From positions 14,645-46,644 of the forward strand of contig NZ_FNOB01000025.1 in assembly GCF_900106675.1 (NCBI RefSeq): a stretch of 32,000 bases of DNA, read 5' to 3'. This document shows positions 2,643-19,582 of the stretch, piece after piece; within the stretch, counting starts at the first letter, position 1, and each line of letters starts with the position of its first letter. The translations under genes were made by a program, and so were the position numbers. Under the pieces are notes generated by a model. The model ran no database searches. It was not told the DNA's origin and saw only the letters and a list, made by a program, of their open reading frames with translations. The stretch comes from Allgaiera indica (lineage in GTDB: Bacteria; Pseudomonadota; Alphaproteobacteria; Rhodobacterales; Rhodobacteraceae).

Positions 2643-2721
2643 GTCTTCCTTCCTGCTTATGCCCTGCCTCACGGGGGCGCCCGGGCAGGCACCCCGTCGG
2701 AGTGCGGGCGGGCATGGTCGA

Positions 2722-4107: not shown

Positions 4108-4417
4108 GGCGTCCTCCTTGGCAAGCGGCTCGGCCGAGTCGCGGCCGATTGCCTCAGGTGTCGCGCATCGCGGCGCAAAGGGCCAGCGGAACTTCCCCGG
4201 TGCCTGGGGTGCGGGGGCCGCCTGCACAAGGCCTGTGCGGGAGGCGGCGGCCAAATCGGGCCAGGCGCCGGATCGCGGGCGCGGGATGGCCTGCCTGAGC
4301 AGTCGCGGGGGCTTCGTTTCCGGCTACCGGATCGACGCAGAGCCGGATCCCGCGTAGCCTTATCCCGGGCGCCGGGCCGGATCTTCCGCCTGCGCGGGTT
4401 AACGGAAAGGGGCGTTC

Positions 4418-5566
4418 TTGGCAGCAAGGACAGAAAAGAGCTGGCGCGTCGGGGTGCTGTTTTCACGAAGCGGCACCACCCATGTGACCGAGAGCGACCA
4501 TATCCGCGGCACCGAGCTTGCCATGGAACAGATCAACGCGTCGGGCGGCGTGCTGGGCCTTCCGCTCCGCCCTGTCAGCTACGATCCCGCGGCCGATGCC
4601 GCGCAATACCGGGCGCTTGCGCGGCGGATGCTGGGCGAGGACGAGATCGACGTCATCTTCGGCTGTTCGACCTCGGCCAGCCGCAAGGCAGTGTTGCCGA
4701 TCGTCGAGCGCCACAACGGCCTTCTGTTCTATCCCTCGATGTACGAGGGTTTCGAATATTGCGAGAATATCCTCTATGCCGGGGCCACGCTGAACCAGAC
4801 CTGCCTGCCGCTGGCTGAATATCTGCTGGCCCATCACGGCCGGCGGATCTTCTTCGTGGGCTCTGATTACATCTACCCCCGGGAATCGAACCGGGTGATG
4901 CGCGACCTGATCGAGGCCAAGGGCGGGGAAGCGGTCGGGGAAGTTTATCTGCCGCTGGGCAGCACCGGCACGGCGGTGGCCGAGGTGGTCGACCAGATCC
5001 GCCTGGCGCGCCCGGACGCGGTGTTTTCCACCGTCGTCGGCACCTCGGCCCATGCGTTCTACCGGCTCTATGACGAGGCCGGCATCGACCGGGCGGCGCA
5101 GCCGGTCGCCAGCCTGACCATGGCCGAAAGCGAGATCGCCCACATCGGGCCGCGGCATTGCAGCGGCCATATCCTGGCCGCGACCTATCTGCAGACCCTC
5201 GACAGCCCCGAAAACCACCGCTTCGTCGCGGCCTACAAGGCGCGTTTCGGAGACGACGCGCGCGCTTCCGTCTGGTCCGAGGCCGCCTATGTCCAGGTGC
5301 ATCTGTTCGCCCGGGCGCTGGCCCGGGCCGGCAGCATGGATCCGGCGCGCATCGGCCGGGCGCTGCTGGGCGACGAGATGCAGACCCCCGAAGGCGCGAT
5401 CCGTGTCGATCCCGACACCCGCCATCTGTGGCTGACACCGCGCATCGGCGTGGCGCGCGCCGACGGGCTGTTCGAACTGGTCTGGCAGGGCGGCGGCCCC
5501 ACGCGCCCCGATCCCTACCTTGCCACCACCCGGTTCGAGGAGGCGTCGCTGGAGGAATGGGCATGA
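4418..5566 (+). CDS. amiC: AmiC-type amide sensor and negative regulator of amidase expression (LivJ-like fold)
   Basis: Long collinear similarity to my recollection of Pseudomonas aeruginosa AmiC (SRKAVLPIVERHNGLLFYPSMYEGFEY, FFVGSDYIYPRESNRVMRDL, IRPDPY-type C-terminus). There is no signal peptide. The start is TTG at 4418 with GGAAAGGGG upstream. Confidence 0.85.
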   Translation: MAARTEKSWRVGVLFSRSGTTHVTESDHIRGTELAMEQINASGGVLGLPLRPVSYDPAADAAQYRALARRMLGEDEIDVIFGCSTSASRKAVLPIVERHNGLLFYPSMYEGFEYCENILYAGATLNQTCLPLAEYLLAHHGRRIFFVGSDYIYPRESNRVMRDLIEAKGGEAVGEVYLPLGSTGTAVAEVVDQIRLARPDAVFSTVVGTSAHAFYRLYDEAGIDRAAQPVASLTMAESEIAHIGPRHCSGHILAATYLQTLDSPENHRFVAAYKARFGDDARASVWSEAAYVQVHLFARALARAGSMDPARIGRALLGDEMQTPEGAIRVDPDTRHLWLTPRIGVARADGLFELVWQGGGPTRPDPYLATTRFEEASLEEWA

Positions 5567-6195
5567 AGGGCGCGCGGCGGATCATGGAGGAGTTGCGGCG
5601 CGCGCGTGTCCTGATCCTGCTTCCCCAGGACGAGGACGGCAAGCTGCTGCGCGATCATCTGCGGCGCCTGGGCTGCGAGGTGCAGGCCGCCTGGCCGATC
5701 CCGCGCGACCTGCCCGAGGATATCGACACGGTGTTCATCAGCGTCAACGACGCCCCCGTGGACGAGATCCTGGCGATGATCGGCGAACGCGACGTGGCGC
5801 TGATCGCCATCGTCACCTACGAAAGCCCGACCACCCTGAAGGCGATCTACGACCTGAACGCCCATGGCGTGATGAGCAAACCCCTGCGCCCCCTGGGCAT
5901 CCTGACCCAATTCACCCTGGCGCTCTACCGTCATCGCTATGAGGCGCAGCTAAGTGTCAAGGTCCGCAAGCTTGAGGAAACGCTGAAGGGCCGCCGGCTG
6001 GTCGACCGCGCGATCCGCCTGTTGATCGAGGTCCAGGGCATGGAAGAGGACACCGCCTATCGCCTGCTGCGCGATCAGGCCACGGCCGAGCGGGTGACGC
6101 TAAGCTCGATCGCGGAAGAGATCGTCGCCGCCCACGACACCATGGCGCGGCTTGGGCTGGGGGCCAGGGGCGTTTCCAAACCGCCGCAAAAATAA
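5563..6195 (+). CDS. amiR: AmiR-type ANTAR-domain transcription antiterminator
   Basis: ATG at 5563 overlaps the amiC stop (ATGA). An alternative in-frame ATG is at 5557. The N-terminus is a pseudo-receiver domain. The C-terminus has a coiled coil plus ANTAR-like sequence (LKGRRLVDRAIRLLIEVQGMEEDTAYRLLRDQATAERVTLSSIAEEIV). Confidence 0.85.
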   Translation: MKGARRIMEELRRARVLILLPQDEDGKLLRDHLRRLGCEVQAAWPIPRDLPEDIDTVFISVNDAPVDEILAMIGERDVALIAIVTYESPTTLKAIYDLNAHGVMSKPLRPLGILTQFTLALYRHRYEAQLSVKVRKLEETLKGRRLVDRAIRLLIEVQGMEEDTAYRLLRDQATAERVTLSSIAEEIVAAHDTMARLGLGARGVSKPPQK

Positions 6196-6282
6196 CGCCG
6201 TTTTCCGGCGCGGCGCCGAAATCTTCAACTTGATCGGTGTTCCAACCTGTGCCAGCCTCAGGGCTCAAGAGCAGGATTGCTC

Positions 6283-6325
6283 GACGGCAGGGTTGCCGTC
6301 TCACATTCAGGCTATGTAGCCCCTG
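6283..6325 (+). promoter_or_regulatory. Candidate ANTAR (AmiR) RNA target: two small stem-loops, the second competing with the leader terminator
   Basis: P1 is GACGGC-AGGGUU-GCCGUC (6283-6300), with loop A at position 1 and G at position 4. P2 is GGC(U)-AUGU-(A)GCC (6310-6321), extendable to CAGG...CCUG (6308-6325). P2 sequesters 6319-6325, which is the 5' arm of the terminator. Confidence 0.45.
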
Positions 6326-6358
6326 ATCCGCGGTCGCGACCGCGTCAGGGGCTTTTTG
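6319..6358 (+). terminator. Rho-independent terminator in the leader, 16 nt upstream of the hydrolase start codon
   Basis: GCCCCTGA(6319-6326)...TCAGGGGC(6345-6352), with an inner CGCGGTC/GACCGCG stem, followed by TTTTTG (6353-6358). Confidence 0.8.
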
Positions 6359-6373
6359 CATTTCGAGGGGCCC

Positions 6374-7207
6374 ATGGCAGATCGCGCCGACGTAACACTT
6401 GCCTGCATCCAGTTCGAACCGATCATCGGGGAACCGGATCACAACCTTGCCCGGATGGAGGCCCATATCCGCGAGGCCCATGCCCGCGGCGCCGATCTGG
6501 TGGTGCTGCCGGAACTGGCCGACAGCGGCTATGTCTTCGAGACGATGGAAGAGACCGCGCGGCTGGCGCGCCCGATCCCGGGCGGCGCCAGCGCGGCGCG
6601 GCTTTGCGCCCTGGCGGCCGAACTGGGCCTGCATATCGTCTCGGGCCTGGCCGAGGAGGCGGGCGGCGATTTCTACAATTCCGCGCTGCTTTGCGGCCCC
6701 GACGGGCCGATCGGCACCTACCGCAAGCTGCATCTGTGGAACCGCGAGAACCTGTTCTTCAAGCCCGGCAACCTGGGGCTGCCGGTCTTCGACACGCCGC
6801 TGGGCCGGATCGGCATGGCGATCTGCTATGACGGCTGGTTCCCCGAAACCTTCCGCGCGCTGGCGGCCGCGGGGGCCGAGATCGTCTGCATCCCGACCAA
6901 TTGGGTGCCGATGCCCGAACAGGACCCCGAGGCCGAGGCGATGGCCAACGTTCTGCACAAGGCCGCGGCCCATTCGAACGGCTTCTACATCGCCTGCGCC
7001 GACCGGGTCGGCACCGAGCGCGGCCAGCCCTTCATCGGCCAAAGCCTGATCCTGGATGCCACCGGCTGGCCCCTGGCGGGCCCCGCCAGCCGCAGCGCGC
7101 CCGAGATCCTGATCGCCACCGTGACGCCGGGCGCCCTGCGCGCCAAGCGGCAGCTTAATGAATTCAATAACATCCTCGGCGATCGCCGGACGGATGTTTA
7201 CGGCTGA
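6374..7207 (+). CDS. Carbon-nitrogen hydrolase (nitrilase superfamily), amidase-type
   Basis: Start MADRADV at 6374. The Glu-Lys-Cys triad context is present: VVLPELADSGY, YRKLHLW, GMAICYDGWFPE. At about 277 aa it is shorter than the AmiE-type aliphatic amidase. Confidence 0.8.
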   Translation: MADRADVTLACIQFEPIIGEPDHNLARMEAHIREAHARGADLVVLPELADSGYVFETMEETARLARPIPGGASAARLCALAAELGLHIVSGLAEEAGGDFYNSALLCGPDGPIGTYRKLHLWNRENLFFKPGNLGLPVFDTPLGRIGMAICYDGWFPETFRALAAAGAEIVCIPTNWVPMPEQDPEAEAMANVLHKAAAHSNGFYIACADRVGTERGQPFIGQSLILDATGWPLAGPASRSAPEILIATVTPGALRAKRQLNEFNNILGDRRTDVYG

Positions 7208-7265
7208 GGGGTTTTCCTCGGCACTCTCCAACCCGCAACAAAAACTCAAGACAGGGAAGACGCAG

Positions 7266-8414
7266 ATGAAACGCAGACTAGTTATCGCAGCACTCGCCGG
7301 CAGCCTTCTGGCCGCCCCGGCCTTCGCCAAGGATCCGATCCTGATCGGCGTGCCGGTCGGGCTGTCTGGGGCCAATTCGGTCGTCGCGCCTTCGGTGGTG
7401 CAGGCGGCGGAACTGGCGGTCGACGAGATCAACGCCAAGGGCGGGGTGCTGGGCCGGCCGCTGAAGCTGGTGGTGGCCGATGACGCCTCGGGCGCGGTGG
7501 GCGCGCAGAAGGCGTTCGATTCGCTGGTGTTCCAGAAGAACGTGAACGTGCTGATCTCGATGGAAACCAGCGCCGCGCGCAACGCCGGCCTGCCGATCGT
7601 GGCGAAGGGCAAGATCCCCTATATCTACACCTCGTTCTACGAGGGCCATTCGTGCAGCCCCTACCTTTACGTCGATGCCTGGGTGCCCGAGCAGCAGGTG
7701 CCGCCGGTGGTGGACTACCTCAAGGGCAAGGGTGCCAAGACCTATTTCCTGATCGGCAGCGATTACGCCTTCGGGCGCGGCATGCTGGGCTTCGCGCGCA
7801 AGTATATCGACAAGACCGGCGGCAAGGTGGTGGGCGAGGAATACCTGCCGATGGACGGCACCGACTGGACGCCGATCATCTCGAAGCTGAAGGCCTTGGG
7901 GGCGGATGCGCTGATCACCTCGACCGCCGGCGGCGCGCCGAACGTCACGCTGACCAAGCAGCTGCGCAGTTCGGGCGTGACCATCCCCTACGCCAACCTT
8001 GCCGTCGATGAGGGCACTGCCAAGAGCATGGGCAAGGATGCCGCGGGGATCCTGATCTCGGCCTCCTACATCACCGGGATCGACAGCAAGGCCAACAAGG
8101 ATTTCATGGCCGCGCTGAAGAAGAAGTTCGGCGACAAGGCGCGCACACCGAACGATCTGTCGGTGCCGGAATATGAGGGTATCTATCTTTATGCCAAGGC
8201 CGTCGAGAAGGCCGGCACCACCGATACGCGTCCGGTGTTGAAGGCGCTGGGCGAGGTGTCGTTCACCGGGCCGCGCGGCACCATCCGGATGAACAAGCAG
8301 CATCACGCGCCGCTGACCATGTATCTGGGTCAGGTGCAGGACGATGGCTCTGTCAAGGTGGTGAAGTCGTTCAAGGACGTCGACCCCGGCAATCAGTGCC
8401 CGAACCTGAAGTAA
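7266..8414 (+). CDS. HAAT-family (LivJ/FmdD/amide-urea type) periplasmic substrate-binding protein
   Basis: ATG at 7266. The signal peptide is MKRRLVIAALAGSLLAAPAFA. The body is Peripla_BP_6-like (ILIGVPVGLSGANS, YFLIGSDYAFGRG). Confidence 0.8.
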   Translation: MKRRLVIAALAGSLLAAPAFAKDPILIGVPVGLSGANSVVAPSVVQAAELAVDEINAKGGVLGRPLKLVVADDASGAVGAQKAFDSLVFQKNVNVLISMETSAARNAGLPIVAKGKIPYIYTSFYEGHSCSPYLYVDAWVPEQQVPPVVDYLKGKGAKTYFLIGSDYAFGRGMLGFARKYIDKTGGKVVGEEYLPMDGTDWTPIISKLKALGADALITSTAGGAPNVTLTKQLRSSGVTIPYANLAVDEGTAKSMGKDAAGILISASYITGIDSKANKDFMAALKKKFGDKARTPNDLSVPEYEGIYLYAKAVEKAGTTDTRPVLKALGEVSFTGPRGTIRMNKQHHAPLTMYLGQVQDDGSVKVVKSFKDVDPGNQCPNLK

Positions 8415-8417
8415 GCG

Positions 8418-8443
8418 CGGGGCGGGGTCGCCCGGCGGCCCCG
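8418..8443 (+). other. GC-rich intercistronic stem-loop just after the binding-protein gene
   Basis: CGGGGC(8418-8423)...GCCCCG(8438-8443) with an inner GGG/CCC pairing. There is no clean U-tract (TCCTTC). Confidence 0.35.
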
Positions 8444-8466
8444 TCCTTCAATACAGGAGACGGCGC

Positions 8467-9300
8467 ATGACGCTTGTCCTCGACATCATCACGACCGCGG
8501 CCATCCTGTTCATCATCGCGACCGGGTTGCTGACCATTTTCGGCGTGCTGAAGATCATCAATTTCGCCCATGGCGCCTGGCTGACGGTGGGGGCCTATTG
8601 TGCCGTCGCGGTTGGCGATCTGGGCTGGAACCCCTGGTTGGCGCTGCCGGTGGCCTTCGTCACCGGCGCGGCGCTGGGCGGACTGACCGAGCGGTTCATC
8701 GTGCGTCCGCTCTATGCCCGGCCGCTGGACGCGATCCTTGCGACCTGGGGTCTGGGGATCATCATCGGCCAGCTCATCACGCTGGGGTTCGGGCGCGACG
8801 TGCAGTTCACCGCGGCACTGCTGCCCGGCACCGCCGATATCCTGGGCACCTCCTATTCGATCTACCGGCTGTTCGCCCTGGCTGCGGCGATCGCGATCGG
8901 GCTGGGCTTTTCGTGGCTGATGGAGGGCACGCGGCTGGGCCTTTCCGCGCGAGCGGTGATCATGAACGAGGCGCTGGCGCGGGCACTGGGCCTTGATACC
9001 CGGCGCATTCGCTGGGTGACCTTCATGATCGGCTGTGGGCTGGCGGCGCTGGCGGGCACGCTGCTGACGCCGCTGACCAGCGTCGATCCCAACATGGGCG
9101 TGGCCTGGCTGGTGGGATCCTTCATGCTGGTCATGGTGGCGGGGCAAAGCTTTGCCGCGCTGGCCCTGGCCTGCCTGCTGCTGGGCGGCGCGCAGGTGAT
9201 CGTGTCGACCTATGTCAGCCCGATCCTGGGGGGGATCACGGTGGCCGTGCTGGCCGCTATCGTGTTGCGCATTTCGCCGAAAGGGTTTTCCCGTGTCTGA
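8467..9300 (+). CDS. Branched-chain-amino-acid/amide ABC transporter permease (LivH-like)
   Basis: AGGAG lies upstream of ATG 8467. The product is a multi-pass hydrophobic protein of typical LivH length (277 aa). Confidence 0.8.
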   Translation: MTLVLDIITTAAILFIIATGLLTIFGVLKIINFAHGAWLTVGAYCAVAVGDLGWNPWLALPVAFVTGAALGGLTERFIVRPLYARPLDAILATWGLGIIIGQLITLGFGRDVQFTAALLPGTADILGTSYSIYRLFALAAAIAIGLGFSWLMEGTRLGLSARAVIMNEALARALGLDTRRIRWVTFMIGCGLAALAGTLLTPLTSVDPNMGVAWLVGSFMLVMVAGQSFAALALACLLLGGAQVIVSTYVSPILGGITVAVLAAIVLRISPKGFSRV

Positions 9301-11086
9301 CACCACGCTTGAAACCGCAACGGCGCCTGCCCGCCGCCGCCGGATGCGCCACCTGTGGATCCTGGCGCTGATCACGGCCGCGCTGGTGATCGCCGGCCCG
9401 CTGTTTCTGGATCGCTTCACCGTCAATGTGCTGACGCGCTCGATGACCTTCGCGATCCTCGCCGTCACCGTCGATCTGCTATGGGGCTTCACCGGCATCC
9501 TGACCTTCGGACAGGCCGCCTTCTTCGGTGCCGGCGCCTATGCGACGGCAATGGTCCTGACCCATCTGGGCAGCACTCCGGGGCTGATGGTGCTGGGGCT
9601 TGTGCTGTCGATCGGGCTTCCGGTTCTGCTGGCGGCCGCGGTGGGTTGGCTGACGTTCTACCCCGGCGCGTCCGATTTCTACGCGACGGTGATATCGCTG
9701 GTGGTGCCGATCGTGGTGACCCAACTGATCTATTCGGGCGGCACCTGGACCGGGTCGAGTTCCGGCCTGGTGGGCTATTTCGCGCTCGACCTCAGCCTTG
9801 GCGGGTATTTCCGGCTTGCCGGGCTCAGCCTGGTGGCGGTGGTCGTGGCGGCGCTGATCTTCGTGCGGTCGGACGCCGGCCGGGTGCTGACCGCGATCCG
9901 CGACAACGAAACGCGCTGCGCCTATCTCGGGATCAGCACCCAGAAGGTGAAGATCGCCCTGACGGCGGTCCTGGCCGGGGTGACCGGCTTTGCCGGGTTC
10001 ATCTACGCGAATTCCTCGGGCGTGGTGGCGCCCGAGAACGCGGGCTTCGTCTTCGGCACGCAACTGGTCGTCTGGACCGCGCTGGGCGGGCGCGGCACAG
10101 TGATCGGCCCGGCCCTCGGGGCGGTGGCGATCGACTATCTCAGCGCGCAGCTGTCCGGCCAGATGCCGTTTCTGTGGCAGTTGGTGATCGGCACGCTGTT
10201 CGTGGTGATGATCATCTTCATGCCCAACGGGCTGGCGGCGCTGGCCACCGGCTGGCGCCGGATGCGGCGGCCCGCGGATGGCGTGTCGCCCGAACTGGTG
10301 GCGCTGCCGCCGCGCGCCGGACGGGGCGGGCCCGCGGGCGCAGAACCGCTTTTGCAGATCGAGAAGCTGGAGAAATCCTACGGCAGCCAGAAGGTGCTGG
10401 AGGATATCACGCTGGAGGTCCGGCGCGGCGAACTGGTCAGCCTGGTCGGCCCGAACGGCGCCGGCAAGACCACGCTGATGCGCTGCATGACCGATGGCAA
10501 GGTCGCCAGCGGCGGTAGCGTACGCATCCATGGCACCGGCATCCACGGCATGGTCCCCGACCAGATCGTCGCGTGCGGCATCGGGCGCAAGTTCCAGGTG
10601 GCCTCGGTTTTCGACAGCCTGACCGTGGCCGAATGCCTGCGCATGGCCCGCGTCTCGCACGAGTCGCCCAGCTTCCTGCGCAGCGCCGACAGCCTTTCGC
10701 TGCCGCAGGCCGCGATCGAGATCCTGCGGCTGACCGGCCTTGACCAGCATCTGGGGCGCGAGGTTTCGTTGCTGTCGCACGGGCAGAAGCAAAGCCTGGA
10801 ACTGGCGATGGTGGTCTCGCTGGAGCCGGAGCTGATCCTGCTGGACGAGCCGACAGCCGGCCTGACGGCGGCCGAGCGCGCGACCATCGGTAAGGTTTTG
10901 GTACGGCTGACATCCGAACTGGGCCTGGCCGCGATCCTGGTCGAGCATGATCTGGATTTCGTGCGCGACATCTCCAGCCGGATCGTGGTGCTGCATCAGG
11001 GCCGGCTGGTGCTGGACGGTACCGTCGAGGAGGTGGTCAATGACGAGATCGTCAAGCGGATCTATTCAGGAGGCGATCATGTCTGA
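9293..11086 (+). CDS. Fused LivM-like permease / LivG-like ATP-binding protein
   Basis: GTG at 9293 overlaps the upstream stop. An alternative ATG is at 9344. The N-terminal ~330 aa are hydrophobic and permease-like. The C-terminal half has Walker A (GPNGAGKTT), a signature-like LSHGQKQ, and Walker B (LILLDEPTAG). Confidence 0.8.
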   Translation: MSDTTLETATAPARRRRMRHLWILALITAALVIAGPLFLDRFTVNVLTRSMTFAILAVTVDLLWGFTGILTFGQAAFFGAGAYATAMVLTHLGSTPGLMVLGLVLSIGLPVLLAAAVGWLTFYPGASDFYATVISLVVPIVVTQLIYSGGTWTGSSSGLVGYFALDLSLGGYFRLAGLSLVAVVVAALIFVRSDAGRVLTAIRDNETRCAYLGISTQKVKIALTAVLAGVTGFAGFIYANSSGVVAPENAGFVFGTQLVVWTALGGRGTVIGPALGAVAIDYLSAQLSGQMPFLWQLVIGTLFVVMIIFMPNGLAALATGWRRMRRPADGVSPELVALPPRAGRGGPAGAEPLLQIEKLEKSYGSQKVLEDITLEVRRGELVSLVGPNGAGKTTLMRCMTDGKVASGGSVRIHGTGIHGMVPDQIVACGIGRKFQVASVFDSLTVAECLRMARVSHESPSFLRSADSLSLPQAAIEILRLTGLDQHLGREVSLLSHGQKQSLELAMVVSLEPELILLDEPTAGLTAAERATIGKVLVRLTSELGLAAILVEHDLDFVRDISSRIVVLHQGRLVLDGTVEEVVNDEIVKRIYSGGDHV

Positions 11087-11801
11087 CCCGGCCCCCGCCG
11101 ACACGGCGGTGCTGTCGCTCGACGGCGTGACCAGCGGCTATGGCCCGATTTCCGTCCTGCAAGGTGTTTCGCTTGCCATTCGGCCCGGCGAGATCTTCGC
11201 GCTGATGGGCAAGAACGGCATGGGCAAGACCACCTTGCTGAAGACCATCCTGGGCGCGATCCGCGCGCGGGGCGGGCGCATCGACTATCGGGGCCGCCCG
11301 ATCCTGGGCGCCGATCCGCGCGCCCTGGTCGAGTCCGGCATCGCCTATGCGCCGCAGGATCAGCCGCTGTTTCAGGACATCTCGATCCGCGACAACCTGC
11401 GTCTTGCGCTGCAGGGCGATCGGCAGCTTGGCGCGGCGCTGGATCGCGTCTATGGGCATTTCCCCTTCCTGCGCGACCGGCTGGGCCAGAAGGCCGGCAC
11501 CCTGTCGGGGGGCGAGCAGAAGATGCTGATCATCGCGCGCGCGCTCATGATGCAGCCCAAGCTGCTGCTGATCGACGAAATCTCGGAAGGGCTGCAGCCG
11601 ACGGTGGTGGCACGCATCGCCCAGGCGCTGCGGCAGGAACGCGAGAGCCGAGGCACCACGATCCTGCTGGTCGAGCAGAACCTGCGTTTTGCCCTTGATG
11701 TGGCGGATCGCTGGGCGGTGCTGAAGCTTGGGGCGATCGAGGATGCGGGCGCGGTGGATGACGGGGCGCATGACAGGATCCTGCGCCATCTGCAGATTTG
11801 A
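11079..11801 (+). CDS. ABC transporter ATP-binding protein (LivF-like)
   Basis: ATG at 11079 follows AGGAGG and overlaps the previous stop by 8 nt. Motifs are GKNGMGKTT, LSGGEQKML and LLLIDEISEGL. Confidence 0.85.
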   Translation: MSDPAPADTAVLSLDGVTSGYGPISVLQGVSLAIRPGEIFALMGKNGMGKTTLLKTILGAIRARGGRIDYRGRPILGADPRALVESGIAYAPQDQPLFQDISIRDNLRLALQGDRQLGAALDRVYGHFPFLRDRLGQKAGTLSGGEQKMLIIARALMMQPKLLLIDEISEGLQPTVVARIAQALRQERESRGTTILLVEQNLRFALDVADRWAVLKLGAIEDAGAVDDGAHDRILRHLQI

Positions 11802-12025
11802 AGGTGGCTGCGTGGATAGATCGGTTCCGCAATGTCTTGGCCGGCTCGGCGTCGGGGCTGCCACCGCCGGATCGCGATGTGCGCCGGCGCCGGGCGCTTT
11901 CTCCAACCAGGAACCTCTGGCGCCGACCGGGCAAGGGCATCGATCCTACCTTCGCCGGTGCTTGCGGATCGCCCCGCCCTGCCTATTCTCAAACTATCTG
12001 CACTCAAACCCCGAAGGAGTCTCTC

Positions 12026-13342
12026 ATGCCGGATGGTAGCAACACACCGTCGCGTCGTAGCGTCGTCGTCTCGGAATTCACCAATAGTGTGCTTGACCCG
12101 AAGGCACCAATGCTGGGCCCGGTCGAGAATGGCGGCACGATCATCGCCAATACCGCGCCCGGGTGCTGGGGGCCGATGATCACGCCGCGCCTGCGCGGCG
12201 GCCACGAGGTGACGCAACCGGTCTTTGTCGAAGGCGCCGAGATCGGCGATGGGGTCGCGATCCGCATCCGCGACATCACTGTGACCTCGATCGCGACCGC
12301 CTCGGGCCATGACAGCTCTCCCGAGGGGTTTTGCGTCGGTGACCCCTATGTCGCCGCGCGCTGCCCGGTCTGCGACACGGTCTGGCCCGAAACCCATGTC
12401 GAGGGCATCGGCCAGGACGCGGTGAAATGCGATGTCTGCGGCAATGCCGTAAAACCCTTCGAGATCGTGCATGGCTATACCGTCACCTTCGACGATACCC
12501 GCGCCGTCGGCCTGACGCTGCCGAAGGAGGCCGCCGAAACCATCGCGCAGCAAGCCGATCATTATTCGGCCCTGCCGGACAACAGCCGCCAGCATTCGAT
12601 CCTGACCTATGCGCCCTCGGGGATGCCGGGCACGCTGGTGCGGATGCGGCCGTTCATGGGGCAGCTTGGCACCTGCCCGTCGATTGCGATGCCCGACAGC
12701 CACAACGCCGGCGATTTTGGCGCCTTCCTCGTCGGCGCGCCGCATAATTACGGCATCACCGCCGAGCAACTGGCCGAACACAAGACCGACGGCCACATGG
12801 ATATCGACGCCGTGCGCGCCGGTGCGATCCTGGTCGCGCCGGTCAAGGTGCCCGGCGCCGGGATCTACATGGGCGACATGCACGCGGGCCAGGGCGATGG
12901 CGAGATCGCCGGCCATACGATGGATGTGTCGGGAAGCGTGACGCTGCAGGTAGAGGTCGTGAAGAACTACCTGCTGGACGGCCCCGTGCTGTTCCCGCTG
13001 GAAGAGGATCTTCCGCCGATGGCCCGGCCCTTCACCGCGGCAGAGATGGCCAAGGGCGCTAAGCTTGCGTCAAAATGGGGCGTGTCCGGGATCGAACCGC
13101 TTGCCCCGATCTCGGTGATCGGCACCGCGGCCAACCTCAACGACGCGATCGAGAACGGGCTTGCGCGTGCGGCCAAGCTGCTGGACATGACCGTCGCCGA
13201 GGTGCGCAATCGCGCCACGATCAACGGCGCGATCGAGATCGGACGCGCCCCCGGGGTGATCCAGGTCACCTTCCTTGCGCCGTTGGCCAGGCTGGATGCC
13301 GTCGGCCTTGGTTCCTATGCGCGTGAGCAATATGGACTCTGA
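12026..13342 (+). CDS. Acetamidase/formamidase (FmdA/AmdA) family amidohydrolase
   Basis: ATG at 12026 with AAGGAG upstream. The track ORF's upstream 76 codons look non-coding. FmdA_AmdA-like blocks are present (GPVEVEGAEPGD-like PVFVEGAEIGDGVAIRI, GDMHAGQGDGEIAG). An embedded CPVC...CDVC motif is also present. Confidence 0.75.
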   Translation: MPDGSNTPSRRSVVVSEFTNSVLDPKAPMLGPVENGGTIIANTAPGCWGPMITPRLRGGHEVTQPVFVEGAEIGDGVAIRIRDITVTSIATASGHDSSPEGFCVGDPYVAARCPVCDTVWPETHVEGIGQDAVKCDVCGNAVKPFEIVHGYTVTFDDTRAVGLTLPKEAAETIAQQADHYSALPDNSRQHSILTYAPSGMPGTLVRMRPFMGQLGTCPSIAMPDSHNAGDFGAFLVGAPHNYGITAEQLAEHKTDGHMDIDAVRAGAILVAPVKVPGAGIYMGDMHAGQGDGEIAGHTMDVSGSVTLQVEVVKNYLLDGPVLFPLEEDLPPMARPFTAAEMAKGAKLASKWGVSGIEPLAPISVIGTAANLNDAIENGLARAAKLLDMTVAEVRNRATINGAIEIGRAPGVIQVTFLAPLARLDAVGLGSYAREQYGL

Positions 13343-13556: not shown

Positions 13557-13954
13557 TCAGACGCTTTCGGCCAGACATTCCACAAGACGCGGCAGCACGA
13601 CATCTCGTCAGCCCGGCCCCATGTTGTCGAAGGCGAAACGATGCTTCGGATTGGACAGGTCGAACCCGTGATGTTCCGGCCGTAGCACGCAGCCCTCGGC
13701 GGTCGGCGTGATTGTCCAGCGCAGGTCGAAATCCCCGAAGGTGAAGGGCAGGGGCCGGCCGGGGGCGACCTCGGTCACGCGGCAGGGAATCGCGCCCCAG
13801 CGGTCCATCTGCATGACGAATTCATGGCCCTCGATCGGGCGATGTCGCCGGGACGCCACCAGCTGGCGATCCCCGCGGGGGTCGAAATGCGCTGCCACAC
13901 CCGCGCGGGCGAGGCCTTGATGGGCTGTTCGATCACGATGCTTTGCGGTGTCAT
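13557..13954 (-). pseudogene. SRPBCC/AHSA1-family gene disrupted by a frameshift and an in-frame TGA
   Basis: The N-terminus (MTPQSIVIEQPIKASPARVWQRISTPAGIASWWRPGDIA) is in one frame, starting at ATG 13954. The family-like continuation (PIEGHEFVMQMDRWGAIPCRVTEV...FAFDNMGPG) is in another frame, with the switch near the CCC run at 13837-13839. TGA at 13608-13610 sits where Trp is expected (GPGW). The same frame then reads RDVVLPRLVECLAESV to TGA at 13557-13559. Confidence 0.65.
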
Positions 13955-14298
13955 TCCGTATTCTCCTCGATCTGTCCGGCAAGATCGGACATGCGCGCCT
14001 TCCAACAGGCCTCGGACGGTTTCAGCCAACTTCGCAATTCGCGCAGGGGTTCGGCGTTGAGCGCATAGATGCGCTCGCGGCCGGATTTGGTTTCCCGCAC
14101 GAGGTCGGCATTGCGCAAGACCGCAAGGTGTTCGGACACGGACGAGTGGCTGATCTTGAATTCCTGCGCGATCGCGCCCACGGACGCGCCGCGGCCCGCA
14201 ATGCGCGGATCCGGCAGTTTCGCCTTGGCCGGAAAGATCGCGGGTGCTTGGGCTTGCGGACGCGGGACGGTGTGGCCATAATATGGGTGACGAGTCAC
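13951..14298 (-). CDS. ArsR/SmtB-family winged-helix regulator (start uncertain, possibly degenerate)
   Basis: The HTH region is SVGAIAQEFKISHSSVSEHLAVLRNADLVRETKSGRERIYAL. The stop overlaps the SRPBCC ATG (ATGA at 13951-13954). The only nearby in-frame start is GTG at 14298, inside the palindrome. The ATG at 14412 would overlap tetR. Confidence 0.6.
   Translation of the reverse strand: MTRHPYYGHTVPRPQAQAPAIFPAKAKLPDPRIAGRGASVGAIAQEFKISHSSVSEHLAVLRNADLVRETKSGRERIYALNAEPLRELRSWLKPSEACWKARMSDLAGQIEENTE
14254..14282 (+). promoter_or_regulatory. Candidate sigma70-type promoter of the tetR operon
   Basis: TTGCGG (14254-14259), a 17-nt spacer, then CATAAT (14277-14282). The -10 element overlaps the palindromic operator. 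Confidence 0.4.
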
Positions 14299-14305
14299 CC
14301 ATATT
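14280..14305. promoter_or_regulatory. Near-perfect palindromic operator in the arsR/tetR divergent region
   Basis: ATATGGGTGAC-GA-GTCACCCATAT (14281-14304) has 11-bp perfect arms, extendable by one A/T pair to 14280-14305. It ends 9 nt before the tetR ATG. Confidence 0.65.
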
Positions 14306-14314
14306 GGTACCGAA

Positions 14315-14926
14315 ATGGCGAATGTAAGCAAGAAGACCCGAGACGCGACCCGCAAGCGCCTGCTGGCGACCGGCGCCGCGCATCTGGCGCGCGACGGACT
14401 GGAGCGCGCCAATGTCGACGCGATCGCGGTTGCGGCGGGCTATGCGAAGGGCACCTTCTACAATTACTTCGACAGCAAGGAGGCGATGTTCGGCGCGGTG
14501 ATCGCGGAATGGGCGGCTCGGGCGACGGAGATCGAGGCAGAGGCCGATCGCGCCTCGGCCGGGGTCCGCCTGCGCCTGACCGCGCTGGCCGAAGCCGATG
14601 TGCGCGTGGTGCGTGAAAACGAGGACTTCGCCAAGGTCGTGATCCGCGAGGTGCTGGCGTTCCGGCCCGAAACCTATCCGATGGTGATCGCGCAGCTGGA
14701 CCCGTTCGTGGCCAAGGTGGAACAGGTGCTGCACGATGGCGTCGCCGCGGGCGAGATCCGCGACGAGCCTTCGGTGACGCAGCAGGCGATGATGTTCACC
14801 GGGTTGCTCGCGCTTTCATATGTCCAGCATTGGGGCAGCGGCGGCGCCTGGCCCGCGCTGGACGAGGTGCCGGCAATGGTGGTGGGCGTGTTTCTGGACG
14901 GCGCCGCGATGCGGGGCGGGCCATGA
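14315..14926 (+). CDS. TetR/AcrR-family transcriptional regulator
   Basis: The N-terminal HTH is TRKRLLATGAAHLARDGLERANVDAIAVAAGYAKGTFYNYFDSKEAMF. At 203 aa the length is typical. Confidence 0.9.
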   Translation: MANVSKKTRDATRKRLLATGAAHLARDGLERANVDAIAVAAGYAKGTFYNYFDSKEAMFGAVIAEWAARATEIEAEADRASAGVRLRLTALAEADVRVVRENEDFAKVVIREVLAFRPETYPMVIAQLDPFVAKVEQVLHDGVAAGEIRDEPSVTQQAMMFTGLLALSYVQHWGSGGAWPALDEVPAMVVGVFLDGAAMRGGP

Positions 14927-15576
14927 GCAGCTTCGTCTGGATGAAGGTGCTGGAATCGACGCCCGAGCGTTACGACCGCGGCATCGCGATGCTCAGCGGC
15001 GGCCGGATCGCACAGGTCTACGGGCGCATCGCCGCGATCGCCGCCGCGCCCGGGCGGCGGGTGCTCGACATCGGCTGCGGCACGGGCGCGGTCTCCTTCG
15101 CCTGCGCAGAGCGCGGGGCGCTGGTGACCGGCATCGACATCAATGCCGAAATGCTGGAGGTCGCGCGCGCCAAGCCGGTCCCCGAGGGCGGGACGATCGC
15201 CTTCCTTCAGCTTGCGGCGGCCGAGATCGAGGACCGTTTCGAGAAGACGAGCCTCGACGCCGTGGTGTCGTGCCTGGCGTTCTCCGAAATGTCGGAAGAG
15301 GAACAGGATTACGCCCTGGAAATCGCGCGTCGGCGGCTGGTGCCCGGGGGCGTGATCGTGATCGCGGACGAGGCCGCGCCGGCGACGCCCCTGGGTCGCC
15401 TGCTGCACCGCCTGCGCCGGCTTCCGGTGGTGCTGGCGACCTATCTGTTGACCCAGACAAGCACCCGGCCGGTGACGGGCCTGGCCGGGCGGATGCGGGC
15501 CGCGGGTTTTGTCGATGTTTCGCAAGAGCGGATGCTGTCGGACGCGTTCGTGATCGTACGGGGGACGCGGCCGTGA
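14923..15576 (+). CDS. Class I SAM-dependent methyltransferase (Methyltransf_11/25-like, UbiE-like N-terminus)
   Basis: ATG at 14923 overlaps the tetR stop (ATGA). Motif I is VLDIGCGTGAVS. There is an acidic post-I residue (TGIDIN) and motif LVPGGVIVI. Confidence 0.85.
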   Translation: MSSFVWMKVLESTPERYDRGIAMLSGGRIAQVYGRIAAIAAAPGRRVLDIGCGTGAVSFACAERGALVTGIDINAEMLEVARAKPVPEGGTIAFLQLAAAEIEDRFEKTSLDAVVSCLAFSEMSEEEQDYALEIARRRLVPGGVIVIADEAAPATPLGRLLHRLRRLPVVLATYLLTQTSTRPVTGLAGRMRAAGFVDVSQERMLSDAFVIVRGTRP

Positions 15577-16685
15577 AGCTTTCCGATCTTCCGGGCTATC
15601 TGCGCGACACCGCCTTCCGCCTTCTGCCCCACCGGGCACGCACCGGGCTGTTCCCGATCGGCGATCCCGGCCCCGATGCGCCGGTCCTGGTGACCGGCAA
15701 TTTCACCCTGACGGTGCGCCGGCTGCGCGAGGCGCTTGCCGGCCAGGCCGCCTGGGTGCTTGTGGTGAATTCGAAAGGGTACAACGTGTGGTGCGCGGCG
15801 GGTGGCGGACACCTCACGCATCACGACGTGATCTCGGCGATGCGCGTGACGCATCTGGCCGACAAGGTCCGCCGTCGAGAGGTGATCCTGCCGCAGTTGG
15901 CCGCAACCGGGGTGGAACGCCGCGCGATCTCCGCCGCCACCGGGTTCGCCACCCGCTGGGGCCCGGCCAGGCTGGAGGATCTTCCGGCGTTCCTTGGGCG
16001 CGGATCGCGGGTGTTCAACGCCGAACGCTTCATGCGCTTCCCCGCCTGGGAGCGCCAGGAAATGGCGGCGATATGGTATGTCCCGGCGCTGATCGTCCTG
16101 GCGCCGGCGATCTGGCTGATGCTTGGCCCGGCGGCGGCGCTGGCTGCGGCCTTCGCCCTGGTCTCGATGGTCGCCGCGCTTTTCGCGATGCTGCCCCGGT
16201 TCAACCCGGTCGGGCCCAGGCGGCTGCCGATCCTGCTGGGCTTCGGTCTGGCCGGGGCGCTGGCCGGCTGGGGTTTGCTGGCCGCCATGGGCGACGCCAT
16301 GCCGTGGACGCTGGTCGTGGTCGGCGCGACCAACCTGATCGGCACGGGGCTTTTGTTCATGGATCTCGCGGGCACCACGCCATGGTACCCCAGCGTGATC
16401 AACACCGGCGCGAACCCTGCGACGATCACGCTGGATGAGGCGCGCTGCGACGGATCGGGCGATTGCGTGATGGTCTGCCCGCGACAGGTGCTGAAGATGA
16501 ACGGATCGCGGCGCAAGGTGGAAATCCGCGATCCCGGCCAGTGCATCCAATGTGGTGCCTGCATCGTGCAATGCCCAAGGGATGCCCTTCTGTTCCATTA
16601 TGCCGATGGCAGCACGGTCGAGGCGCCCACCATCCGCAACACCCGTCTGAACATGCTGGGCAAGCGCCGAGAGGTTCGCCGCTAG
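15573..16685 (+). CDS. Fused HgcA-like corrinoid-binding/membrane domain plus HgcB-like 2x[4Fe-4S] ferredoxin domain (HgcAB-like fusion protein); substrate unknown
   Basis: GTG at 15573 overlaps the methyltransferase stop (GTGA). The region PVLVTGNFTLTVRRLREALAGQAAWVLVVNSKGYNVWCAAGGGH resembles the HgcA cap-helix region (N(V/I)WCA(A/G)GK), and ILPQLAATGV and ARLEDLPAFL blocks follow. Four hydrophobic helices span aa ~165-266. The ferredoxin motifs are CDGSGDCVMVCP and CIQCGACIVQCP. Confidence 0.8.
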   Translation: MKLSDLPGYLRDTAFRLLPHRARTGLFPIGDPGPDAPVLVTGNFTLTVRRLREALAGQAAWVLVVNSKGYNVWCAAGGGHLTHHDVISAMRVTHLADKVRRREVILPQLAATGVERRAISAATGFATRWGPARLEDLPAFLGRGSRVFNAERFMRFPAWERQEMAAIWYVPALIVLAPAIWLMLGPAAALAAAFALVSMVAALFAMLPRFNPVGPRRLPILLGFGLAGALAGWGLLAAMGDAMPWTLVVVGATNLIGTGLLFMDLAGTTPWYPSVINTGANPATITLDEARCDGSGDCVMVCPRQVLKMNGSRRKVEIRDPGQCIQCGACIVQCPRDALLFHYADGSTVEAPTIRNTRLNMLGKRREVRR

Positions 16686-16873: not shown

Positions 16874-17698
16874 GTGCACTATCGCACAATATTTATCTCC
16901 GACACGCATCTTGGCAGCCGCGGCTGCCAGGCGGACATGCTGTTGGACTTTCTTCGCCAGCATGACGCGGACACGATCTTTCTGGTCGGAGATATCGTCG
17001 ACACCTGGCAATTGCGTCGGGGCTGGTTCTGGCCGCAGACCCATAACGACGTGGTTCAGGAACTGCTTTCCAAGGCCCAGTCCGGCGCGAGAGTGATCTA
17101 TATTCCGGGCAACCACGACGAGGGCCTCCGATCTTATCTTGGGACCCATTTCGGGGGGATCGAGGTCAAGAAGTCGGCCGAGCATGTCGCCGCGGACGGG
17201 CGGCGCCTGCTTGTCACCCATGGCGATCAGTTCGACGCGATCGTCGTTCACGCCAAATGGCTGGCCCATCTCGGGGACCGGGCCTACGACTTCGCATTGT
17301 GGCTCAATATCTGGGTGAACCGCTTTCGCCGGATCTGGGGCGGTTCCTACTGGTCCTTGGCGAACTGGGCCAAGGGACGGGTGAAATCGGCGGTCAACTT
17401 CATCGGGGAATACGAGAAGGTGCTGGCCGGCGAAGCCCGGCGCGGGCGCTTCGACGGGGTCGTGTGCGGACATATCCACCGCGCCAACATCCGCGATATC
17501 GACGGCATCCGATACGTCAATTGCGGGGACTGGACCGAAAGCTGCACCGCGGCCGCCGAGCGCGAGGATGGATCGCTGTTTCTCATCGACTGGGCCGCGG
17601 CCAAGCGGCGCCGCCGGATGATCGAGGATCTTCGCGCGGGACGGCCCCTGCCAGAGGCCCTGCGCGCGCGGCGCAAGAGGAAGAAGGAACTCGCCTGA
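16874..17698 (+). CDS. plcP: PlcP-type metallophosphoesterase (LpxH-like fold), a phosphate-starvation phospholipase C
   Basis: GTG at 16874 gives VHYRTIFISDTHLG. Calcineurin-like motifs are DTH, GDIVD, GNHDE, HGD and GHIH. The call to PlcP rather than LpxH rests on its position directly upstream of btaA/btaB. Confidence 0.7.
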   Translation: MHYRTIFISDTHLGSRGCQADMLLDFLRQHDADTIFLVGDIVDTWQLRRGWFWPQTHNDVVQELLSKAQSGARVIYIPGNHDEGLRSYLGTHFGGIEVKKSAEHVAADGRRLLVTHGDQFDAIVVHAKWLAHLGDRAYDFALWLNIWVNRFRRIWGGSYWSLANWAKGRVKSAVNFIGEYEKVLAGEARRGRFDGVVCGHIHRANIRDIDGIRYVNCGDWTESCTAAAEREDGSLFLIDWAAAKRRRRMIEDLRAGRPLPEALRARRKRKKELA

Positions 17699-17701
17699 GC
17701 C

Positions 17702-18925
17702 ATGACCGGCATTCCCAACGTCAGCGATCAACTCCGCTCTGCCGTTCAGCAAAATGCCGCGTTCAGCGCGACGGGGCTGCTGGAACGTCTGTTCTCGCGG
17801 CTCTTCCATGGCCTCGTCTATCCCCAGATCTGGGAGGATCCGGTGGCCGATCTGGCGGCTTTGCAGATCGGTCCGCAAGACAACATCGTCTGCATCGCCT
17901 CGGGCGGCTGCAACGTGATGTCCTATCTCACGGCCGATCCGGCCTCGATCACCGCCGTCGACCTTTCGCCCGCGCATGTCGCGCTGGGCCGGTTGAAGCT
18001 GGCGGCGGCGCAACATCTCGATGCGCAGGGGTTCTTCGACTTCTTCGGCCGCGCCGACCGCGCCGGCAATGTCGCGGTCTATGACCGCCGGATCGCGCCG
18101 CATCTCGATCCGGTCACGCGCGCCTATTGGGATGCGCGCCCCTATGTCCGCCGCCGCATCGCCATGTTCGGCCGGGGTTTCTACCGCTTCGGCCTGCTTG
18201 GCCGCTTCCTAGGTGCGCTTCGGGCGGTGGCGCGGCTTGCCGGCGTCGATTTCCGCCGCTTCGCGACCTGCGCGACGCTCGACGACCAGCGGCGGTTCTT
18301 CGACGCGCGCATCGCCCCGCTTTTCGACGCGCCGGCAATCCGCTTCCTTGCGCGAAGCCGCGCCGCGCTGTTCGGCCTGGGCATCCCGCCCGCGCAATAC
18401 GACAAGCTGGAGGCCGACGGCGGTGGCGACATTCTTCCCGTGCTGCGGGATAGGGCGCGCAAGCTTCTGTGTGGCTTTCCGCTGTCGGAAAACTACTTCG
18501 CGCGGCAGGCGCTGACCCGGTCTTACGCGGCGGCCGAGGCCGGCTCGGTGCCGCCCTATCTGGACGCGGCCGCATTCCCGGCGCTGCGGCGCAATGCCGG
18601 GCGCGTTCGGGTGCTGAACCGGTCGCTTACCGATCTGCTGGCCGAAATGCCGGCCAGCCAGACCCAGGCTTATGTCCTGCTCGATGCGCAGGACTGGATG
18701 ACCGACGAACAGCTCAACGCGCTCTGGCATCAGATCACCCGCACCGCGGCCCCCGGCGCGCGGCTGATCTTTCGCACCGGGGGCGCGGCGGATATCCTGC
18801 CCGGCCGCGTGTCCACGACGCTGCTTGCGACCTGGCGCCGCGATGACGAGGCATCCGCGAAAGGCTTCGCGGCGGATCGCTCGGCGATCTACGGCGGCTT
18901 CCACTGCTACCGGCAGATCGGCTGA
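17702..18925 (+). CDS. btaA: BtaA, S-adenosylmethionine:diacylglycerol 3-amino-3-carboxypropyl transferase (DUF3419 family)
   Basis: The DUF3419/BtaA signature block is GLVYPQIWEDPVADLAALQIGPQDNIVCIASGGCNVMSYL...AVDLSPAHVALGRLKLAAA. It starts 3 nt after the plcP stop. Confidence 0.8.
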   Translation: MTGIPNVSDQLRSAVQQNAAFSATGLLERLFSRLFHGLVYPQIWEDPVADLAALQIGPQDNIVCIASGGCNVMSYLTADPASITAVDLSPAHVALGRLKLAAAQHLDAQGFFDFFGRADRAGNVAVYDRRIAPHLDPVTRAYWDARPYVRRRIAMFGRGFYRFGLLGRFLGALRAVARLAGVDFRRFATCATLDDQRRFFDARIAPLFDAPAIRFLARSRAALFGLGIPPAQYDKLEADGGGDILPVLRDRARKLLCGFPLSENYFARQALTRSYAAAEAGSVPPYLDAAAFPALRRNAGRVRVLNRSLTDLLAEMPASQTQAYVLLDAQDWMTDEQLNALWHQITRTAAPGARLIFRTGGAADILPGRVSTTLLATWRRDDEASAKGFAADRSAIYGGFHCYRQIG

Positions 18926-18928
18926 GCC

Positions 18929-19582
18929 GTGGAAGAAAGCACGCTTTCCCACGCCGCGCTGATGGATGCGACCTACCGCTATCAGCGGCTGTTCTACGAC
19001 GCGACGCGGCGCTATTACCTGCTTGGCCGAGACCGGCTGATCCGCACACTCGATCCGCCCGCCCGCGCCCATATACTGGAAGTCGCCTGCGGCACGGGCC
19101 GCAATCTTGACCGGATCGCCGCGCGCTATCCCGGGCGCGGGCTTTACGGGCTCGACATCTCGGAACAGATGCTGCGCTCGGCCCGGGCGAAGCTTGCCGG
19201 CCGGGCGGTGCTGGCGCGGGCGGATGCGCGTGACTTCGATCCGGGGGCGCTCTTTGGTCGGTGCCAGTTCGACCGGATCGTGTTTTCCTACAGCCTGTCG
19301 ATGATCCCCGACTGGGAAGAGAGCTTGCGCCACGCGCTGCCGTATCTCGCCCCGGGCGGAGAACTGCACATCGTCGATTTCGGCGGGCAGCGCCGGCTCC
19401 CCGCGTGGTTCGGGGCCGGGCTGCGCGCCTGGCTTGCGCGTTTTCACGTCGCGCCAAGGGATGATCTTGCCGAGGCCGCGGCCCGGATCGCGGCCGAGGC
19501 CGATTGCCGCGCAATTTCGGAAAGCCTCTTTCGCGACTATTGCCAGCATCTTGTCATCCGCCGCCCCGGACCGGCTGACTGA
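18929..19582 (+). CDS. btaB: BtaB, diacylglycerylhomoserine N-methyltransferase
   Basis: GTG at 18929 has the same junction, CTGAGCC(A/G)TG, as plcP/btaA. SAM motif I is ILEVACGTGRNL. The length of about 217 aa and the position after btaA fit BtaB. Confidence 0.75.
   Translation: MEESTLSHAALMDATYRYQRLFYDATRRYYLLGRDRLIRTLDPPARAHILEVACGTGRNLDRIAARYPGRGLYGLDISEQMLRSARAKLAGRAVLARADARDFDPGALFGRCQFDRIVFSYSLSMIPDWEESLRHALPYLAPGGELHIVDFGGQRRLPAWFGAGLRAWLARFHVAPRDDLAEAAARIAAEADCRAISESLFRDYCQHLVIRRPGPAD

Follow-up and report, generated by a model that had tools for sequence, protein, structure and literature searches.

The locus and its features

This report concerns the gene of an HgcAB-like fusion protein from Allgaiera indica, which lies in a stretch of 32,000 nucleotides (nt) of contig NZ_FNOB01000025.1 (positions 14,645 to 46,644 of the forward strand); this whole stretch is referred to below as the window, and all coordinates are counted from its first letter. 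HgcA and HgcB are the two proteins of mercury methylation, and an earlier note, written from the letters alone, had singled out four features in which the fusion protein departs from them and had taken them to speak against mercury as its substrate and for a different acceptor. The gene is preceded by cpaM, which encodes a methyltransferase, and by tetR, which encodes a regulator. Specifically, the TGA stop of tetR overlaps the ATG of cpaM (ATGA, 14923-14926), and the stop of cpaM overlaps the GTG start of the hgcAB-like gene by 4 nt (GTGA). The features of the system are the following (aa, amino acids; TM, transmembrane; SAM, S-adenosylmethionine; CFeSP, corrinoid iron-sulphur protein):

14280-14305, no strand assigned: perfect 12+12 palindrome AATATGGGTGAC-GA-GTCACCCATATT, a candidate TetR operator, 9 nt upstream of the tetR ATG
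14315-14926, + strand: TetR-family regulator, 203 aa (Pfam TetR_N and TetR_C_24)
14923-15576, + strand: cpaM, class I SAM-dependent methyltransferase, 217 aa (NF043040, 'corrinoid protein-associated methyltransferase CpaM', 273.4 bits against a cutoff of 180)
15573-16685, + strand: coding sequence of the HgcAB-like fusion protein, GTG start, 370 aa, stop included (NF043039)
15627-15995, + strand: corrinoid-binding domain with the C-terminal fold of the CFeSP large subunit, aa 19-141 (Pfam CdhD PF03599 over aa 19-133)
15783-15806, + strand: cap-helix motif NVWCAAGG, aa 71-78, with the putative cobalt-ligating Cys74 (codon TGC at 15792-15794)
16044-16364, + strand: four TM helices, aa 158-184, 186-205, 217-238 and 244-264 (AlphaFold2 secondary structure and hydropathy)
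16362-16388, + strand: post-TM4 motif DLAGTTPWY (alignment; the counterpart in true HgcA is NFTGSTTFTS)
16446-16481, + strand: Fe-S motif 1, C-x2-S-x2-C-x3-C-P, CDGSGDCVMVCP, aa 292-303, second Cys missing and Ser295 at that site
16542-16577, + strand: Fe-S motif 2, canonical, CIQCGACIVQCP, aa 324-335 (translation)
16578-16682, + strand: Cys-free, Arg-rich C-terminal extension of 35 aa (..EAPTIRNTRLNMLGKR..), with R355, N360, G363 and R365 invariant

The 370-residue product matches a GenBank entry at 100% identity, namely the 'hypothetical protein' U879_03690 from Defluviimonas sp. 20V17 (an alphaproteobacterium, Paracoccaceae), and its N-terminus agrees with the homologue consensus MRLxDLPxYLRD; the GTG at 15573 is therefore taken as the correct start. 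A longer in-frame open reading frame (ORF) from 14820 was rejected as the gene, being an artefact of high G+C content. On the translation from GTG 15573, every motif coordinate given in the earlier note is exact. Of the eight Cys of the protein, seven belong to the ferredoxin part and the remaining one to the cap helix. The AlphaFold2 model of the protein is confident (predicted local distance difference test 88.8, predicted template modelling score 0.84).

Family membership and conservation

On the scores of the curated NCBIfam profiles, the gene is a typical member of the catalogued HgcAB-like fusion family NF043039, a paralogue of HgcA/HgcB. It passes the profile of that family with 369.7 bits against a cutoff of 285 (aa 10-339 on profile positions 4-349 of 350) and has its architecture, that is, a CdhD-type domain, a TM domain and a two-motif ferredoxin in one polypeptide. 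It fails the cutoffs for HgcA (NF040863, 154.8 bits against 275), for HgcB (NF040864, 54.5 against 99) and for the CFeSP large subunit AcsC/CdhE (NF003195, 57.4 against 306), where only the C-terminal corrinoid domain aligns. Fused HgcAB proteins were described in 2015 by Podar et al., for instance in Pyrococcus furiosus, Methanococcoides methylutens, Kosmotoga and Atribacteria (PMC4646819). In the literature they count as a paralogous clade and serve as an outgroup, and the Hg-MATE protocol marks them 'treat with caution' (PMC10087281).

With the NF043039 family the protein shares the corrinoid domain, Cys-bearing cap helix, TM domain and two-motif ferredoxin in a single chain, and like its relatives it is without Lys after the cap Gly. 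Unlike other members, the bacterial subclade to which it belongs (named hosts are Alphaproteobacteria, Gemmatimonadota and Myxococcota) is without the second Cys of motif 1 and has a Cys-free, Arg-rich tail of 34-45 aa. A fused gene alone does not mean an HgcAB-like protein, since a natural HgcA-HgcB fusion of 415 aa (P0240) scores as true HgcA (300 bits); it reads NVWCAAGKGS and CMECGA, and has a Cys at +12 and a C-terminal Cys.

Another close relative is the mercury methylase HgcA/HgcB of Pseudodesulfovibrio mercurii ND132. Both systems have a homologous corrinoid domain with its cap Cys (strictly conserved in HgcA, Cys93 in ND132 and Cys74 here), TM1-4, the post-TM4 motif and a dicluster-type ferredoxin partner, and SAM as the methyl source is probably common to both. 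Here, however, (i) the cap pattern N[VI]WC[AS][AGS]GK of HgcA (Parks 2013; high-stringency list of Capo 2022) ends in GG, (ii) four TM helices are found in place of the five that make up the C-terminal domain of HgcA (PMC7305189), and the ferredoxin is fused, (iii) the ferredoxin has seven cluster Cys rather than eight, so that the two complete CxxCxxCxxxCP motifs of HgcB are not present, and CIQCGA rather than C(M/I)ECGA, (iv) there is neither an equivalent of HgcB Cys73, about 12 residues after motif 2, nor a C-terminal Cys, and (v) a dedicated class I methyltransferase stands next to the gene, with a TetR-type rather than an ArsR-type neighbour.

Two samples were used for counting: the 120 closest homologues, which are 56-86% identical to the query, and 73 full-length copies from an independent search of genome and metagenome contigs. 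The latter were picked by their cap-helix and motif-2 patterns, and only their motif-1 and tail counts are unbiased. Gene context was read from 84 related loci, taken from contigs encoding homologues and from a metagenome scan using the alignment. A scan of genome contigs with the single protein had given one real relative (L001) and eight loci with generic ferredoxins, and a search of a plasmid collection found no relative.

W73, C74, G78, G79, the seven ferredoxin Cys, R355, N360, G363 and R365 are invariant in 115 aligned homologues at 56-86% identity, and these features are not due to chance. The four deviations listed in the earlier note all exist, yet they are traits of the family or subclade and not of this one gene. 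The same conservation bears on the idea that the gene is a decaying, non-functional paralogue, which could be suggested by the loss of several residues that HgcAB cannot do without. The catalytic and cluster residues, however, show no variation over the range of identity above, the operon coupling and the operator are conserved (see below), as is the replacement tail itself, and the family is large, with at least 2,243 clusters at 90% identity (E <= 1e-5) and 139 clusters in a library clustered at 50% identity (E <= 1e-30). Decay is effectively refuted by this evidence, and we regard it as exceedingly improbable.

Corrinoid domain and cap helix

The corrinoid domain matches the CFeSP structures 2h9a and 4c1n in a phmmer search, and Foldseek placed the HgcAB model 9a0b_A first, followed by 2ycl, 4c1n and 2h9a, with a root-mean-square deviation of ~2.0 A over ~128 residues. 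The fold is that of the CFeSP large subunit AcsC/CdhE (2ycl, 4c1n, 2h9a, 4djd), where the cap helix likewise packs on the corrin. CFeSP differs in having Thr or Ala instead of Cys at the cap position, in keeping GK, and in being a soluble protein with an N-terminal [4Fe-4S] domain and a TIM-barrel partner, supplied from methyl-tetrahydrofolate through MeTr.

The cap helix retains Cys74, the putative cobalt ligand, and has Gly where the GK motif of HgcA has Lys, just as the earlier note had read it. In most of the 120 homologues the helix follows NVWCA[AS][GS]G, with Lys in none of them. An alignment with true HgcA bears out the contrast that the note had drawn: all seven unfused HgcA representatives (NF040863 scores of 319-422 bits) read NVWCAAGKG[TS], so the substitution is absent from validated sequences (GK in 7/7), and the published cap-helix motifs of confirmed methylators all end in GK (PMC10087281). 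CFeSP too has GK at this position in the phmmer alignment. Since GK is thus common to true HgcA and CFeSP, the Lys is ancestral and was lost in the fused clade; a neighbour-joining tree, poorly resolved and used for this point only, groups the GK-containing sequences together. As a sequence marker the change from Lys to Gly is a clean diagnostic, with no effect on function implied.

Two further observations concern this region. After the cap helix, a His pair (15819-15824, aa 83-84, in GGGHLTHHD) stands where true HgcA has GTFGT(D/E)E; H84 is invariant and H83 occurs in at least 90% of homologues, and the pair is a candidate substrate- or cofactor-contacting site that appears to be clade-specific. 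In addition, a subclade including P0154, P0164, P0177, P0178 and P0215, among others, has the cap N[IV]WCSSLAGH and an N-terminal extension of ~140-200 aa, which gave no Pfam or NCBIfam match.

Ferredoxin domain and C-terminal tail

Pfam Fer4 families match aa 285-341. The ferredoxin Cys are at positions 292, 298, 302, 324, 327, 330 and 334, a pattern of three and four ligands. The reading of the earlier note, with Ser295 in place of the second Cys of motif 1 and a canonical motif 2, holds at both sites. At the second-Cys site, Cys occurs in 0/120 homologues (Ala in 94, Ser in 17, then Thr, Val, Lys and Arg) and in 0/73 loci (A/S/T/D/V); motif 2 is canonical in all 120 homologues and in 73/73 loci, the latter having been picked on this very pattern. 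More distant members of NF043039 that also score above the cutoff (P0169 and P0180) have a canonical CxxCxxCxxxCP motif 1 and Cys-rich tails. The three-Cys motif is limited to the subclade and bears on cluster type and redox properties, not on the acceptor.

As only three Cys are available, the cluster concerned is predicted to be of the [3Fe-4S] type. The earlier note had left a Ser-ligated cluster as an option. Overall, the residues seen in place of the second Cys are A, S, T, V, K, R, D and E, and a residue that varies so widely is not a conserved ligand; together with known precedents, this favours [3Fe-4S] over a Ser-ligated [4Fe-4S] cluster. Such precedents are the natural 3Fe motifs of Escherichia coli FrdB and NarH, and the DmsB C102 mutants. 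The same pattern of three plus four Cys is found in 7Fe ferredoxins (1h98, 1bc6), to which phmmer gave weak sequence matches; unlike these, the domain here is tethered to a membrane corrinoid protein and its cluster type is a prediction from sequence. The published HgcAB model assigns the cobalt-distal cluster to the first three Cys of motif 1 together with the Cys-Pro Cys of motif 2 (PMC7305189). By that assignment, the predicted [3Fe-4S] would be the electron-entry cluster, and the one on the corrinoid side would stay [4Fe-4S].

After Cys334 there is no further Cys (aa 335-370). The tail was rightly called Cys-free in the earlier note, which gave it 30 aa; its length after the second Cys-Pro is 35 aa. 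It is Cys-free in 118/120 homologues and 73/73 loci, and in the AlphaFold2 model it forms a strand (339-343) and a helix (351-357). The Arg-rich tail, EAPTIRxTRxNMLGxR, is also present in a few sequences whose motif 1 retains its second Cys (P0123, P0141 and P0150), and the tail was therefore probably gained before that Cys was lost. Among the four traits of the earlier note, only the Cys-free tail speaks directly to the handling of mercury.

Membrane domain

The four TM helices proposed in the earlier note from ~16065 to 16382 are confirmed by hydropathy and AlphaFold2, which place them at 16044-16364. The sole basic loop, LPRFNPVGPRR (aa 206-216), connects TM2 to TM3. An N-in/C-in topology agrees with this, and both soluble domains would therefore face the cytoplasm. 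In the DLAGTTPWY motif that follows, G267, T269 and P270 are invariant among homologues, and D264, L265, T268, W271 and Y272 occur in at least 90%.

The alignment of the fused proteins with HgcA extends through TM4 to the end of this motif. Beyond it, a linker and the ferredoxin follow in the fused proteins, whereas HgcA goes on into TM5. A cytoplasmic ferredoxin fused in place of TM5 makes four helices a topological necessity. The earlier note had counted the helix number against mercury, and this argument fails, since P0240, the fusion that keeps the mercury hallmarks, likewise has four; the trait is uninformative on substrate.

Operon, regulator and candidate operator

The closest companion of the gene is cpaM, which is found directly upstream in 58/59 loci whose upstream sequence spans 700 nt or more, at gaps of -18 to +96 nt. 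The only exception, L017 (1-850), is without a recognisable cpaM, and its upstream 800 nt hold no convincing ORF. Moreover, six proteins of the 50% library (P0159, P0179, P0193, P0199, P0213 and P0214) are single CpaM::HgcAB-like polypeptides that pass both NCBIfam cutoffs, and such Rosetta-stone fusions argue for direct functional coupling of CpaM and the HgcAB-like protein. The earlier note had named neither the family of the fusion protein nor the coupled methyltransferase, and the latter is the most informative feature of the locus. A sequence search of the PDB with CpaM returned generic class I methyltransferases only, with no clue to the substrate.

A TetR homologue lies upstream in 17/46 loci with enough upstream DNA. 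The core of the palindrome, TGGGTGACNNGTCACCCA, occurs once in the window (0.03 expected) and recurs exactly in 10 other loci, where it lies within ~110 nt upstream of tetR in nine of the nine that were located (the position in L079 is unchecked); it is absent from loci without tetR. The loci that share it encode HgcAB-like proteins that are only 42-85% identical. The palindrome is probably the operator of an autoregulated operon. Scans for consensus promoters and terminators around the operon gave nothing above chance, and no recurrent neighbour besides CpaM and TetR was seen upstream or downstream in the 84 related loci.

Proposed function and its alternatives

The reading that we favour, at a probability of about 0.6, is that methyl groups would pass from SAM, by way of CpaM, to a Cys-ligated corrinoid and on to a non-mercury acceptor, with the ferredoxin re-reducing the cobalt. 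In this reading, the translationally coupled operon tetR-cpaM-hgcAB-like encodes CpaM as its first enzyme and the HgcAB-like protein as its second. The latter combines a corrinoid domain and a two-cluster ferredoxin, both cytoplasmic, with a membrane domain of four helices, and the Cys74 thiolate of the corrinoid domain would be placed to ligate cobalt. The proposed cycle would have four steps: (i) the TetR repressor would sit on the conserved palindrome until freed by a small-molecule inducer; (ii) electrons would enter the distal cluster and, via the proximal [4Fe-4S], reduce Co(II) to Co(I); (iii) CpaM and SAM would methylate Co(I) to methyl-Co(III); and (iv) the Cys-on methyl-corrinoid would methylate an electrophile at the face of the membrane.

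Step (iii) is suggested by analogy with true HgcAB, for which SAM as the methyl donor to cobalamin and Co-thiolate ligation have been shown (PMC11588087). An unlikely alternative at this step is that CpaM and the ferredoxin domain form a repair module only, carrying out reductive re-methylation of Co(II), with the catalytic methyl group coming from elsewhere, for example from a methylated substrate or methyl-tetrahydrofolate. SAM with a one-electron donor is the established chemistry by which methionine synthase (MetH) is reactivated, and by that parallel the pair could serve the same end here. If electrons enter through a [3Fe-4S] cluster of relatively high potential, Co(II) reduction would have to be drawn forward by the exergonic methylation from SAM, and the strict 1:1 linkage with CpaM fits a chaperone-like partner equally well. 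However, no second methyltransferase of the TIM-barrel MT1/MT2 type recurs nearby, and in true HgcAB the catalytic donor is SAM (PMC11588087).

The direction of methyl flow in step (iv) could also be reversed. More specifically, Co(I) may attack, and thereby demethylate or dehalogenate, a methyl or halogenated compound, and CpaM may modify the product or some other substrate; we consider this quite unlikely. Co(I) is a supernucleophile whose chemistry is widespread, and control by TetR suggests a response to organic xenobiotics. Cys-on ligation, however, has been proposed to favour methyl donation to electrophiles (PMC7305189), a fusion of CpaM to a corrinoid protein most simply means coupling of donor and carrier, and no methyl-acceptor enzyme is conserved nearby.

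Hg(II) is an unlikely acceptor for three reasons. First, the equivalents of C73 and C94/C95, the HgcB cysteines implicated in the binding and delivery of mercury, are missing, with a conserved Arg-rich segment there instead; mutagenesis of HgcB showed that Cys73 and the C-terminal pair C94/C95 are needed for mercury methylation (PMC7305189). Second, the regulator is of the TetR type and not a metal sensor. Third, the two carriers of fused HgcAB that were assayed in culture, Pyrococcus furiosus and Methanococcoides methylutens, formed no methylmercury (PMC4646819; PMC5893877).

The opposite case would be a genuine oxygen-tolerant mercury methylase, to which Hg(II) is brought by small thiols or another protein. 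In its favour are the retention of Cys74 with its cap helix, of the TM domain and of an HgcA-like post-TM4 motif, and the HgcAB model as the best structural match, and Lin et al. name an aerobic alphaproteobacterium with a fused gene, Breoghania, as untested. On the other side, beyond the three reasons above, the protein fails the equivalog cutoffs of both HgcA and HgcB and lacks the published GK and C(M/I)ECGA motifs (PMC10087281), and mutation of the Cys73 that it is without abolishes activity in HgcB (PMC7305189). We rate a mercury methylase as very unlikely.

Several points weigh against our preferred reading of a SAM-fed, non-mercury methylation system. Podar et al. caution that a lack of methylmercury does not prove the fused enzyme inactive (PMC4646819), a caution that also favours a mercury methylase, and the negative tests are whole-cell assays of two archaea of other subclades (PMC4646819; PMC5893877). 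Purified true HgcAB takes SAM without a helper methyltransferase (PMC11588087), so a dedicated one is not obviously required. The similarity of CpaM is to class I methyltransferases in general, so its substrate may be a non-corrinoid one, and a sequence does not give the cluster types with certainty.

The direction of the earlier conclusion, away from mercury, agrees with all tests, with the qualification that its four arguments are of unequal weight and the helix count has none. The different acceptor that it had proposed fits a non-mercury reading, yet there is no positive evidence for any particular compound. A tentative and more specific version, which we would not expect to hold in full, is that tetR-cpaM-hgcAB-like is a substrate-induced, oxygen-tolerant SAM/B12 methylation system of aerobic and facultative bacteria. 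In such a system, a methyl carbanion or radical might be passed from the Cys-ligated corrinoid to a non-mercury electrophile, either a metal(loid) (Sn, Pb, Bi, Sb or Te) or the electrophilic carbon of a membrane-soluble organic compound. If this were true, it would be a second biological use of HgcA chemistry, with a ligand that could be found via the TetR repressor.

Relation to published work

That the protein is not a mercury methylase restates current opinion, matches the published negative tests and is not new. Literature found under CpaM or 'HgcAB-like fusion' concerned unrelated acronyms only, and no functional study of the fused family was found. In the accessible literature, we also found (i) no residue-level catalogue of the bacterial subclade (GG cap, seven-Cys ferredoxin, Cys-free tail), (ii) no report of the near-universal coupling to cpaM or of the natural triple fusions and (iii) no mention of the conserved TetR operator. 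The catalogue, the coupling and the operator sharpen a testable hypothesis without revealing the substrate.

There is also a practical side. Surveys of hgcA in metagenomes use the cap helix as a marker, and the paralogue family is large and occurs in aerobic and facultative lineages. Four flags of unlikely mercury methylators in this clade, namely GG for GK, a three-Cys motif 1, a conserved Cys-free tail and an upstream cpaM, guard against the over-calling of 'aerobic Hg methylators'. At the same time, the Cys-on corrinoid, an unusual trait of HgcA, is retained throughout the family, and the coupling to CpaM, the three-domain fusions and the TetR operator offer a concrete route to the substrate.

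Neighbouring genes

The genes around the operon are the following (HTH, helix-turn-helix):

13951-14412, - strand: ORF with an ArsR/SmtB-type HTH (Pfam HTH_5, E 3e-7), divergent from tetR
~16880-17698, + strand: calcineurin-like metallophosphoesterase
17702-18925, + strand: DUF3419 protein (Pfam E 1e-105)
18929-19582, + strand: class I methyltransferase, 217 aa
19776-23852: phosphonate-type ABC transporter

The downstream genes (metallophosphoesterase, DUF3419, the small methyltransferase and the phosphonate ABC transporter) were rejected as partners, as they occur in 0 other loci. The metallophosphoesterase and DUF3419 genes are missing in the 84 related loci, including that of an 85%-identical Defluviimonas metagenome-assembled genome. 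The segment 16880-19582 resembles a PlcP/BtaA/BtaB-type cluster for betaine-lipid remodelling under phosphorus starvation. The divergent ArsR-type ORF, which has an atypical-looking N-terminal part that lies across the tetR promoter region, was likewise rejected as an operon partner, since none of the other loci shows it upstream. Further upstream, positions 12-13342 of the window encode a protein with a lysyl-phosphatidylglycerol-synthase C-terminal domain, a class III aminotransferase, a urea/amide-type ABC transporter, a CN-hydrolase and a formamidase/acetamidase, and this part belongs to amide-nitrogen metabolism, unrelated to the hgcAB-like operon.

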